Of a stretch of 64,000 bases of DNA, positions 2,924-9,470 are shown in pieces (the stretch's first letter is position 1; every line of letters starts with the position of its first letter). The translations under genes and the position numbers were made by a program. The notes beneath the pieces were generated by a model. It saw nothing but the letters and a program-made list of their open reading frames with translations. It had not been told where the DNA came from and searched no databases. Source of the DNA: Escherichia coli (GTDB lineage Bacteria > Pseudomonadota > Gammaproteobacteria > Enterobacterales > Enterobacteriaceae); NCBI RefSeq assembly GCF_003334315.1, contig NZ_QOWR01000003.1; one strand, 5' to 3'.

Positions 2924-3606
2924 GCTTCCTCCTGCAACTGCCCGTTCACCAGCCGTAAGCAGCGGTCGCAGCGTGCCGCCAGTTGCAGGTCGTGGGTCAC
3001 CATAATCAACGTGGTGCCATGTTCACGGTTGAGGGAAAACAGCAGGTCGGCAATTTTATCGCCCGTCTGGCGGTCAAGGTTGCCGGTGGGTTCGTCGGCA
3101 AACAGCACATCAGGTCGACCATTAAAGGCTCGTGCCAGCGCCACTCGTTGCTGTTCACCGCCGGAAAGCTGTGCCGGAAGATGATCCAGACGTTTACCCA
3201 GCCCTAACTGTTCGAGCAACGCTTTCGCCCCGTTACGACTTTCCGCGCTACTCTCACCGCGCAGCAGAGCCGGAAGCTCGACGTTTTCCAGCGCGTTAAG
3301 GGTAGGAATTAACATAAATGACTGAAAAACAAAGCCGACGTGCTTCGCGCGCAACTTTGCCCGCGCTTCTTCGTCCATATTATGTAGCGGTTGTCCCACC
3401 AGACTCACTTCGCCACTGCTGCCGTCATCAAGCCCGGCGAGGATCGCCAGCAAGGTTGACTTACCCGATCCCGACTCGCCCACCAGTGCGATGGTCTCGC
3501 CACGTTTGACAACCAGCTCAACTCCGGTGAGGATGGAGAGTTCATGCTCCCCCTGACCGACGGACTTCTTAAGATGATGAACTTCAACAATGTTTTCCGC
3601 TGGCAT
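2920..3606 (-). CDS. ybbA: ABC transporter ATP-binding protein
   Basis: 228 aa; Walker A GESGSGKST and ABC signature LSGGEQQR visible in translation. Confidence 0.9.
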   Translation of the reverse strand: MPAENIVEVHHLKKSVGQGEHELSILTGVELVVKRGETIALVGESGSGKSTLLAILAGLDDGSSGEVSLVGQPLHNMDEEARAKLRAKHVGFVFQSFMLIPTLNALENVELPALLRGESSAESRNGAKALLEQLGLGKRLDHLPAQLSGGEQQRVALARAFNGRPDVLFADEPTGNLDRQTGDKIADLLFSLNREHGTTLIMVTHDLQLAARCDRCLRLVNGQLQEEA

Positions 3607-7565: not shown

Positions 7566-8483
7566 ATGCTTATCTTTATCCCGATTCTCATTTTTGTCGC
7601 GCTGGTCATTGTCGGCGCGGGTGTCAAAATCGTACCGCAGGGCTATCAGTGGACAGTAGAACGCTTTGGTCGCTATACCAAAACGTTACAGCCGGGGCTC
7701 AGTCTGGTGGTGCCGTTTATGGATCGCATTGGTCGCAAGATCAATATGATGGAGCAAGTGCTCGATATCCCTTCCCAGGAAGTTATCTCGAAAGATAACG
7801 CCAACGTTACCATCGACGCCGTGTGCTTTATTCAGGTGATTGACGCGCCGCGCGCGGCTTATGAAGTCAGCAATCTGGAGCTGGCGATCATCAACCTGAC
7901 CATGACTAACATCCGTACCGTGCTGGGTTCAATGGAACTTGACGAAATGCTCTCTCAGCGCGACAGCATCAACTCACGCCTGCTGCGTATTGTCGATGAA
8001 GCCACCAACCCGTGGGGGATTAAAGTCACCCGTATTGAAATTCGCGACGTGCGCCCACCGGCAGAGCTTATCTCTTCAATGAACGCGCAGATGAAAGCGG
8101 AACGTACCAAACGCGCTTACATTCTTGAAGCGGAAGGGATCCGTCAGGCGGAAATCCTCAAAGCCGAAGGTGAAAAACAGTCGCAAATCCTGAAAGCGGA
8201 AGGCGAACGTCAGTCGGCGTTTTTACAGGCTGAAGCGCGTGAACGTTCCGCCGAAGCAGAAGCCCGCGCCACCAAAATGGTGTCTGAAGCTATCGCCTCC
8301 GGTGATATTCAGGCGGTGAACTACTTCGTAGCGCAGAAATACACCGAAGCGTTACAGCAGATCGGTTCCTCCAGTAACAGCAAAGTAGTGATGATGCCAT
8401 TAGAGGCCAGCAGCCTGATGGGGTCGATTGCCGGGATTGCCGAGCTGGTGAAAGACAGCGCCAACAAACGGACTCAGCCATGA
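7566..8483 (+). CDS. qmcA: SPFH/band-7 membrane protein
   Basis: 305 aa, N-terminal TM helix then SPFH domain. Confidence 0.85.
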
Positions 8484-8938
8484 TGGAGTTAATGGTCGTT
8501 CATCCACATATTTTCTGGCTCAGTCTCGGCGGTTTGCTGCTGGCAGCCGAGATTCTGGGCGGAAATGGTTATTTGTTGTGGAGCGGCGTGGCAGCGGTGA
8601 TTACCGGCCTGGTGGTCTGGCTGGTGCCGCTGGGTTGGGAGTGGCAAGGGGTAATGTTTGCCATCCTGACGCTGCTCGCCGCCTGGCTGTGGTGGAAATG
8701 GTTGTCGCGGCGGGTGCGCGAACAAAAGCACAGCGATAGTCATTTAAACCAGCGCGGGCAGCAGCTGATTGGCCGACGTTTTGTGCTGGAATCTCCGCTG
8801 GTCAACGGGCGCGGTCATATGCGCGTCGGTGACAGTTCATGGCCTGTCAGCGCCAGCGAGGATCTCGGTGCAGGTACGCATGTTGAAGTCATTGCGATAG
8901 AAGGGATAACCCTACATATCCGAGCCGTCTCGTCTTAA
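8480..8938 (+). CDS. ybbJ: NfeD-like inner membrane protein
   Basis: 152 aa; 4-nt overlap with qmcA stop, the usual SPFH/NfeD operon pairing. Confidence 0.85.
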
Positions 8939-9346
8939 TCACCCTGCCCGATGATGACAGCAGCCGGAGAGATTTTCGATAATCGGGCAGTCGGCGCTGT
9001 CATCGCCAGGGCAGGCATTCGCCAGTGCCAGCAGCTGGTCGCGCATGGATTGCAGCTCCTCAATGTGTCGTTCGATCTCCGCCACCTTCTCCAGCGTGCG
9101 CCGTTTGACGTCGGCGCTGTGCCGCTGCGGGTCGTTAAACAGATTCACCAGCTCGCCGCTCTCTTCCAGGTTAAAGCCCACCTGCCGTGCCTGGCGCAGT
9201 AAGGTCAGTTCGTTGAGATGCTGCTGCGTGTAGGTGCGATAACCGTTTTCGCTGCGCATCGGCGGCGTCACCAGCCCCTTCTCTTCATAGAAGCGAATGG
9301 CTTTGCTGGTCAGGCCGGTAATTTTTGCTACATCGCTGATGTTCAT
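8939..9346 (-). CDS. cueR: MerR-family Cu(I)-responsive transcriptional regulator
   Basis: 135 aa; N-terminal MerR HTH, C-terminal metal-binding Cys pair (CPGDDSADC). Confidence 0.9.
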
Positions 9347-9470
9347 CGTTCGCGCAACGCCTCCTGTGCTTTGTTAAAGGGTTTCAACAGATATTCAAGC
9401 ACGTTTTTTTGCCAGTGCGAATATCGACCGCCACCACAATAATACAGGAAGTACTGCGCACAGAGAGATG

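Follow-up and report, generated by a model that had tools for sequence, protein, structure and literature searches.

The convergent gene pairs ybbJ/cueR and aes/hemH of Escherichia coli meet tail to tail with no DNA between their coding sequences, in an arrangement that is real, conserved, and ordinary and that is already present in the reference annotation and in the literature. We analyzed both pairs in a 64,000-nucleotide stretch of the E. coli chromosome (contig NZ_QOWR01000003.1; hereafter the window), which corresponds to about 459 to 523 kb of MG1655 in reverse complement and includes a 2-kb stretch identical in several sequenced strains. Considered as a whole, the arrangement probably reflects ancestral tail-to-tail packing, with the signals that form the 3′ end of each transcript placed within the coding sequence of its partner.

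The stop codons of both gene pairs abut or overlap

The original prediction, made from the sequence of the window, was that the stop codons of ybbJ and cueR are directly adjacent and that aes and hemH overlap by 4 nt. The raw sequence, the listing of open reading frames (ORFs), and the RefSeq annotation of MG1655 agreed on both points (Table 1), and the layout in MG1655 is identical (cueR 513993-514400 and ybbJ 514401-514859; hemH 498055-499017 and aes 499014-499973). Wrongly assigned stop codons, or a 3′ over-extension of one ORF per pair, would create the same appearance, and some convergent overlaps in databases are indeed 3′-extension errors (PMC2478687). Mis-assignment was checked and ruled out here, since the stops follow from unambiguous reading frames and the products of 135, 152, 319, and 320 amino acids have the RefSeq lengths. 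Homologues in other genera also terminate equivalently, with C-termini that align across many genera and include the functional C-terminal Cys/His motif of CueR. We therefore consider an annotation artefact very improbable.

Table 1. Features of the ybbJ/cueR and aes/hemH junctions, in window coordinates.
Feature	Position	Strand	Remarks
qmcA	7566-8483	+	First gene of the qmcA-ybbJ operon; ORF and RefSeq annotation
Published Rho region MG1655 514988	~8351	-	~588 nt past the cueR stop; position transferred from the cueR stop, gene lengths being identical
ybbJ coding sequence	8480-8938	+	NfeD family, 152 aa; TAA stop at 8936-8938
rut-like tract, cueR-sense RNA	8505-8704	-	C up to 50%, C/G up to 2.8
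Abutting ybbJ/cueR stops	8936-8941		TAATCA, 0-nt spacing
cueR coding sequence	8939-9346	-	135 aa; TGA stop at 8941-8939 (TCA on the plus strand)
Imperfect palindrome	8943-9015		73 nt, in the last 25 cueR codons; begins 5 nt past the ybbJ stop
aes coding sequence	23265-24224	+	319 aa; TAG stop at 24222-24224
C-rich, G-poor tract, hemH-sense RNA	23758-23960	-	Antisense to aes; C/G 2.0-2.7
Published Rho region MG1655 499332	~23906	-	~315 nt past the hemH stop, inside aes
hemH coding sequence	24221-25183	-	320 aa; TAA stop at 24223-24221 (TTA on the plus strand)
aes/hemH coding-sequence overlap	24221-24224		4 nt, TTAG; TAG on the plus strand, TAA on the minus strand
Intrinsic-terminator-like element for aes	24257-24304	+	In hemH codons; begins 33 nt past the aes stop

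Stop codons read as TTA, CTA, or TCA on the opposite strand, so that two facing ORFs can finish on the same few bases. Both pairs would be ordinary, ancestral cases of tail-to-tail packing in Enterobacteriaceae, in which these complements permit shared ends. Because no intergenic DNA is left, the 3′-end signals of each transcript fall within the coding sequence of the partner. The earlier claim that neither pair has room for a terminator thus held for intergenic DNA and failed for the partner genes, whose last 25 to 30 codons contain hairpin elements in both pairs.

According to the MG1655 annotation, the window contains 11 convergent junctions between coding sequences, with gaps of 51, 48, 30, 41, 211, -4, 132, 36, 315, 0, and 62 nt. 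Two of these 11 gaps are zero or negative and the other nine range from 30 to 315 nt; the two form the short tail of a continuous, ordinary distribution of convergent gaps. Convergent overlaps are a recognized minority class, accounting for about 7% of overlaps across 338 genomes (PMC2478687).

Three further arrangements were seen in the window. The small RNA gene chiX, identified by an Rfam sroB match of 82 bits, converges on ybaP with a spacing of -2 (ybaP 15158-15952, plus strand; ChiX/sroB 15951-16034, minus strand; shared bases 15951-15952), and a Rho region has been published on the strand antisense to ybaP, past the end of chiX (MG1655 507468). The genes tesA (plus strand) and ybbA (minus strand) overlap head to head by 33 nt at 3574-3606 in the MG1655 annotation, and the pair has been given as a divergent excludon (PMC12288877). 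Rfam naRNA4 (REP/BIME-type) matches occur at 14576-14653 and 21714-21791, the latter beside the end of gsk within the 132-nt gsk/ybaL convergent spacer, where it illustrates the typical content of roomier convergent junctions.

Tight packing is conserved across genera

We surveyed one genome per species and obtained 80 cueR loci, in 74 of which ybbJ was found within the flank. The spacing was -4, 0, or +3 nt in 44 of these 74 Enterobacteriaceae species loci: -4 nt in 30 (Enterobacter, Klebsiella, Lelliottia, and others), +3 nt in 11 (Kluyvera, Kosakonia), and 0 nt, the same as in the window, in 3 (Trabulsiella). Spacings of -47, -14, -9, or +5 were found in 4 loci, and tight packing was thus present in 48 of 74. 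About 2.85 kb separates ybbJ from cueR in 22 loci, mostly from Citrobacter, Kosakonia, and Phytobacter. The content of this gap, read in a single Citrobacter locus of the 22 (L016, 3408-6238), consists of two added genes on the ybbJ strand that encode a PA5441-family protein of 714 aa and a 251-aa protein for which no NCBIfam match was found. The gene for the 251-aa protein, the last of the two, overlaps cueR by 4 nt.

The second pair behaved similarly. aes and hemH were contiguous in all 5425 matching E. coli genomes; they have a spacing of -4 in Citrobacter, and a further enterobacterial contig set has them at 0. The spacing is -26 (L008, 1349-1374) in a divergent E. coli allele, represented by 245 genomes in the 80-90% identity band of which one (GmF052) was inspected; aes is 9 nt longer in GmF052, giving a 26-nt overlap with hemH and placing the aes stop about 11 nt from the hairpin embedded in hemH. 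Such persistence of tight packing across genera whose synonymous sites are saturated is not due to chance.

The ybbJ/cueR junction is a hot spot of insertion and deletion

Of 5423 complete E. coli genomes, 3204 matched a 321-nt probe spanning the ybbJ/cueR junction without a break; in the others the match was interrupted at window positions 8932-8939. Approximately 41% of the 5423 genomes carry 0.8 to 2.6 kb or more of DNA inserted exactly at this point. The O157-like insert of about 2.6 kb contains a hypothetical gene, a YadA-family adhesin gene, a lipoprotein gene, and a 204-nt ORF whose end is 3 nt away from the cueR stop; on the upstream side of cueR, strains of this type also have a type I secretion cluster. 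The insert of strain SE15 comprises 829 nt with a frameshifted ORF that likewise abuts cueR, and one strain has an additional IS4 insertion at ybbJ/cueR. Some gene finishes 0-3 nt from the cueR stop in each variant. Insert-bearing strains also differ in their allele of the last ~10 ybbJ codons (LIIRAVIA versus LHIRAVSS before the stop), and REP-like repeats come next.

K-12-type strains, including the source of the window, have a remnant of the HlyD gene of the secretion cluster just upstream of cueR. A frameshifted 'hypothetical protein' with a truncated N-terminus, annotated by PGAP at window ~9343-9440 (minus strand), overlaps the cueR start and matches the 3′ end of the type I secretion gene of the HlyD family preceding cueR in O157-like strains, which marks it as the scar of a deleted secretion/adhesin island. 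Deletions have therefore happened at this locus, and the junction is a hot spot of both insertion and deletion. The resemblance of the YbbJ C-terminus of K-12-type strains (RAVSS) to that of the outgroups Salmonella and Citrobacter favors an abutment retained from the ancestor; the inserts in the other Escherichia sampled, together with the island remnant, favor an abutment restored by deletion.

Transcripts of both pairs overlap and Rho regions lie within the partner genes

We compared the two junctions with published transcript data. In the ExcludonFinder list (NAR 2025), 165 convergent pairs have overlapping transcripts in at least 50% of 58 RNA-seq sets from MG1655, and both hemH-aes and cueR-ybbJ are among them (PMC12288877). 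Adams et al. (eLife 2021) compared untreated and bicyclomycin-treated cells by DirectRNA-seq to define Rho termination regions, and two of these regions fall downstream of cueR and hemH, on the MG1655 plus strand that carries both genes. The region at 514988(+), antisense to qmcA, has a Rho score of 15.4 (p = 2.7e-12), with upstream/downstream reads of 61/5 in untreated cells and 68/86 with bicyclomycin; the region at 499332(+), antisense to aes, has a Rho score of 4.07 (p = 6e-10), with reads of 79/24 and 422/522, respectively (PMC7815308, Supplementary file 2). Given the strand of cueR, its transcript runs through the whole of ybbJ and about 130 nt into qmcA up to the Rho stop. Of the two options in the original prediction, collision and termination inside the partner gene, the second is thereby borne out, by the Rho regions antisense to qmcA/ybbJ and aes and by the overlapping transcripts of both pairs.

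Overlapping transcripts could also serve repression, with expression of either gene reducing that of its partner by transcriptional interference or by RNase III cleavage of the sense-antisense duplex. Consistent with such a regulatory excludon, both pairs belong to the published excludome, and the tail-to-tail junction is conserved whichever neighbor gene abuts cueR. However, at spacings of 0 and -4 nt any co-expression scores as an excludon by the definition of the method (PMC12288877), the literature on the two pairs yielded no reciprocal expression data, and no obvious functional link ties copper sensing to QmcA/YbbJ or haem synthesis to an esterase. Compaction and the stop-codon complement rule account for the spacing without regulation, and we regard a regulatory role as quite unlikely.

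The composition of the antisense RNA was consistent with the action of Rho. Untranslated C-rich, G-poor tracts of the kind that characterizes Rho-dependent terminators were found on the minus strand downstream of cueR and hemH (Table 1), the first being antisense to the Trp/Gly-rich membrane segments of YbbJ. Only 0.25% of the 78-nt windows across the 64 kb reach a C/G ratio of at least 2.8. The three longest minus-strand runs in the window with C/G of at least 1.7 (25186-25361, 8505-8676, and 23758-23927) all coincide with a published Rho region of the same strand or directly precede one. The corresponding upstream tract was weaker for the aes-sense RNA (C/G 1.5-1.9) and marginal for the ybbJ-sense RNA (1.2-1.45). 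The rut-like composition and the bicyclomycin data thus agree.

The longest of the three runs (25186-25361, minus strand) falls in the spacer separating adk from hemH and closely precedes a Rho region located at the initial hemH codons (MG1655 498060, Rho score 4.0; PMC7815308). This suggests that Rho limits read-through from adk into hemH.

For the opposite strand the published lists were silent. Supplementary file 2 of PMC7815308 contains no Rho regions for the ybbJ-sense or aes-sense transcripts, and its Supplementary file 1 contains no Term-seq 3′ ends at 498.8-499.3 kb or 514.3-514.6 kb, where low expression could mask them. No entries for mapped 3′ ends were found in the available material of SMRT-Cappable-seq (PMC6131387), Dar and Sorek 2018, a Nanopore paper, or ExcludonFinder. 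The roles of the hairpins embedded in cueR and hemH, described below, are therefore predictions.

A conserved hairpin is embedded in the last codons of cueR

The imperfect palindrome at the end of cueR folds at -41.2 kcal/mol on the ybbJ-sense RNA (z = -5.3; 0 of 200 shuffles equally stable) and at -39.1 kcal/mol on the cueR-sense RNA, and its 13-bp core is conserved across Enterobacteriaceae. No U-tract follows it on either strand, the ybbJ-sense side reading CAUUCGCCAGUGCC, and the hairpin is therefore not a canonical intrinsic terminator. A terminator scan found no canonical terminator within 360 nt of the ybbJ/cueR junction on either strand; the nearest plus-strand match, at 9303-9321, is weak (-13.3 kcal/mol, z = -1.5). 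The first 80 nt past the cueR and hemH stops on their own strands fold like shuffled sequence (z = -0.1 and -0.6, respectively), and Rfam families were absent from both junctions. A promoter-like site at 8954-8983 (plus strand) was rejected as being at chance level (2 found against 2.7 expected).

We compared the palindrome with 1000 synonymous recodings of the same codons. On the ybbJ-sense strand no recoding matched its stability (z = -3.8), on the cueR-sense strand one did (z = -3.2), and control segments of cueR gave z values from +0.3 to -2.3. The complementarity is thus partly derived from the protein sequence and partly not. In 80 distinct enterobacterial sequences of the conserved 60-nt core, the median recoding z was -2.65 on the ybbJ-sense strand (81% below -2) and -0.45 on the cueR-sense strand (17% below -2); the species compared are related, and these z-scores, like the codon counts that follow, are not independent observations.

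Codon usage in the stem pointed to the same strand. Every stem pair joins the third position of a codon to the second position of one in the opposite arm, and the near-fixed codons are those that need a third-base C for pairing in the ybbJ-sense RNA. Compared to cueR codons 1-108, the preferred codon was enriched in the stem at Asp116 (GAC, 95% versus 26%), Ser117 (AGC, 96% versus 70%), Ala118 (GCC, 84% versus 22%), and Gly128 (GGC, 98% versus 41%), and Cys129 is TGC in 91%. In contrast, neighboring codons for the same amino acids that can pair with either T or C (as A-U or G.U) vary freely, with TGT/TGC counts of 39/41 at Cys130, a split of 53/27 at His131, and GAT/GAC counts of 70/10 at Asp115. 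The five constrained codons had a normalized synonymous entropy of 0.24, compared with 0.60 in the remaining 96 conserved codons (Mann-Whitney p = 0.002), and three of the nine least variable codons of cueR lie in the stem. Compensatory double changes were not found in the hairpin, and shuffles gave the observed covariation value; because every pair joins a third to a second codon position, such changes are impossible, which makes classical covariation measures flat and uninformative here.

The hairpin is equally present where a gene other than ybbJ converges on cueR, as in the O157-type islands and in Citrobacter. Together, these comparisons raise the possibility, which we put forward tentatively, that the hairpin acts on the transcript arriving from the opposite direction, where it would pause the polymerase, protect a trimmed 3′ end, or do both, and that it keeps antisense transcription out of cueR. 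A broader and likewise tentative proposal is that the last ~25 codons of cueR could serve as a 3′-end-forming or insulating element for any converging gene, be it ybbJ in K-12-type E. coli, the Citrobacter gene for the 251-aa protein, or a gene of an O157-type island.

One strain departs from this pattern. In E. coli SCPM-O-B-8794 (L012, ~3400-3557), the CueR C-terminus past CCHH is replaced by KAECLKTYPDEAQKT followed by the stop, the ORF is 12 codons longer, the gap to ybbJ is 112 nt, and the embedded hairpin is lost at the 3′ end (-11.7 kcal/mol).

A hairpin with a U-run lies inside hemH on the aes-sense strand

The element inside hemH resembles an intrinsic terminator, with a G+C-rich hairpin followed by a U-tract. 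Its hairpin (24257-24294) has a 15-bp stem and an 8-nt loop, folds at -20.7 kcal/mol on the aes-sense RNA (z = -5.6; 0 of 200 shuffles equally stable), and is followed by CAUAUUUUUU. It was flagged in the terminator scan, which returned 6 matches against 3.9 expected, so that any single match can be due to chance. As a terminator it is a weak example, with an interrupted U-run and an A-U rich stem base. Three G.U pairs in the aes-sense stem become three A.C mismatches on the hemH-sense strand, and the structure is thus confined to one strand, as fits a terminator for aes. The hairpin is kept in four other lineages, including Citrobacter, a second enterobacterial lineage, and the divergent allele of E. 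coli, and the U-run is decayed or lost in Citrobacter. Comparison with synonymous recodings gave a marginal result (z = -1.9, p = 0.05). Its features make the hemH-embedded hairpin a plausible predicted terminator of aes.

Rho-dependent termination probably accounts for the data better than collision

Reportedly, Ju et al. 2019 found overlapping bidirectional terminators of the collision type at convergent pairs. Applied to the present junctions, the model would have converging polymerases pause at a hairpin that forms on both strands and dislodge each other without Rho. The cueR palindrome, at the junction and stable on both strands, provides the structure that the model requires, but the hairpin of the aes/hemH pair is good on one strand only. 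Moreover, the class is described as Rho-independent and the model favors highly expressed pairs (Wang et al., bioRxiv 10.1101/2022.10.23.513370), whereas the cueR-sense and hemH-sense transcripts show strong bicyclomycin-dependent read-through, which implicates Rho, and the reads are low, 61 and 79 per 800 nt (PMC7815308). Collision is not needed to explain the data, and we consider it unlikely.

Under ancestral packing with signals in the partner gene, the reading that we prefer, the events on the two strands would differ. As the published reads document, the cueR-sense and hemH-sense transcripts continue past their stops into sequence antisense to ybbJ/qmcA and to aes, where the untranslated RNA crosses a strongly C-rich, G-poor tract and Rho terminates it ~300-600 nt downstream. 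A Rho stop inside the partner makes the mRNAs of each pair overlap, as in a convergent excludon. On the other strand, aes transcripts are predicted to finish at the hairpin and U-run within the last ~28 hemH codons, and qmcA-ybbJ transcripts would meet the very stable and evolutionarily maintained hairpin of the last ~25 cueR codons. The most likely role of the latter would be to pause the polymerase or to protect the 3′ end after downstream termination by Rho and exonuclease trimming, and it would limit antisense transcription into cueR.

Relation to known systems and significance

Both pairs resemble the short convergent overlaps described previously (Rogozin 2002; Johnson and Chisholm 2004; Palleja 2008, PMC2478687), which likewise share 0-4 nt and are conserved. 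Nothing material sets them apart from that class; ybbJ/cueR abuts here and overlaps by 4 nt in most other genera. As convergent excludons both pairs are named members (PMC12288877) and are candidates as to exclusive expression or dependence on RNase III. With Rho-dependent termination of untranslated and antisense RNA (Peters 2012; Adams 2021, PMC7815308) they share antisense, bicyclomycin-sensitive regions after C-rich, G-poor tracts and a typical distance of more than 50 nt from stop to termination, documented for one transcript per pair. A two-strand hairpin at a convergent junction is shared with the overlapping bidirectional terminators (Ju 2019; Wang 2022); unlike that class, the ybbJ/cueR hairpin lies wholly within one coding sequence and termination of the cueR-sense transcript is sensitive to Rho inhibition.

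The layout, the overlapping transcripts, and the Rho regions within the partner genes have all been published and carry little weight as a discovery. The conserved hairpin in the 3′ codons of cueR is the sole element that we did not find described, and it is possibly new. If its proposed role is true, selection on an antisense structure would fix synonymous sites in cueR, and the hairpin could explain how a spacer-free junction doubles as an insertion point for islands. If confirmed, it would be a tidy case in which an RNA structure acting on the antisense transcript constrains synonymous sites. Together, the two pairs offer a clean textbook illustration that compact bacterial genomes can write 3′-end signals into the coding sequence of a neighbor.
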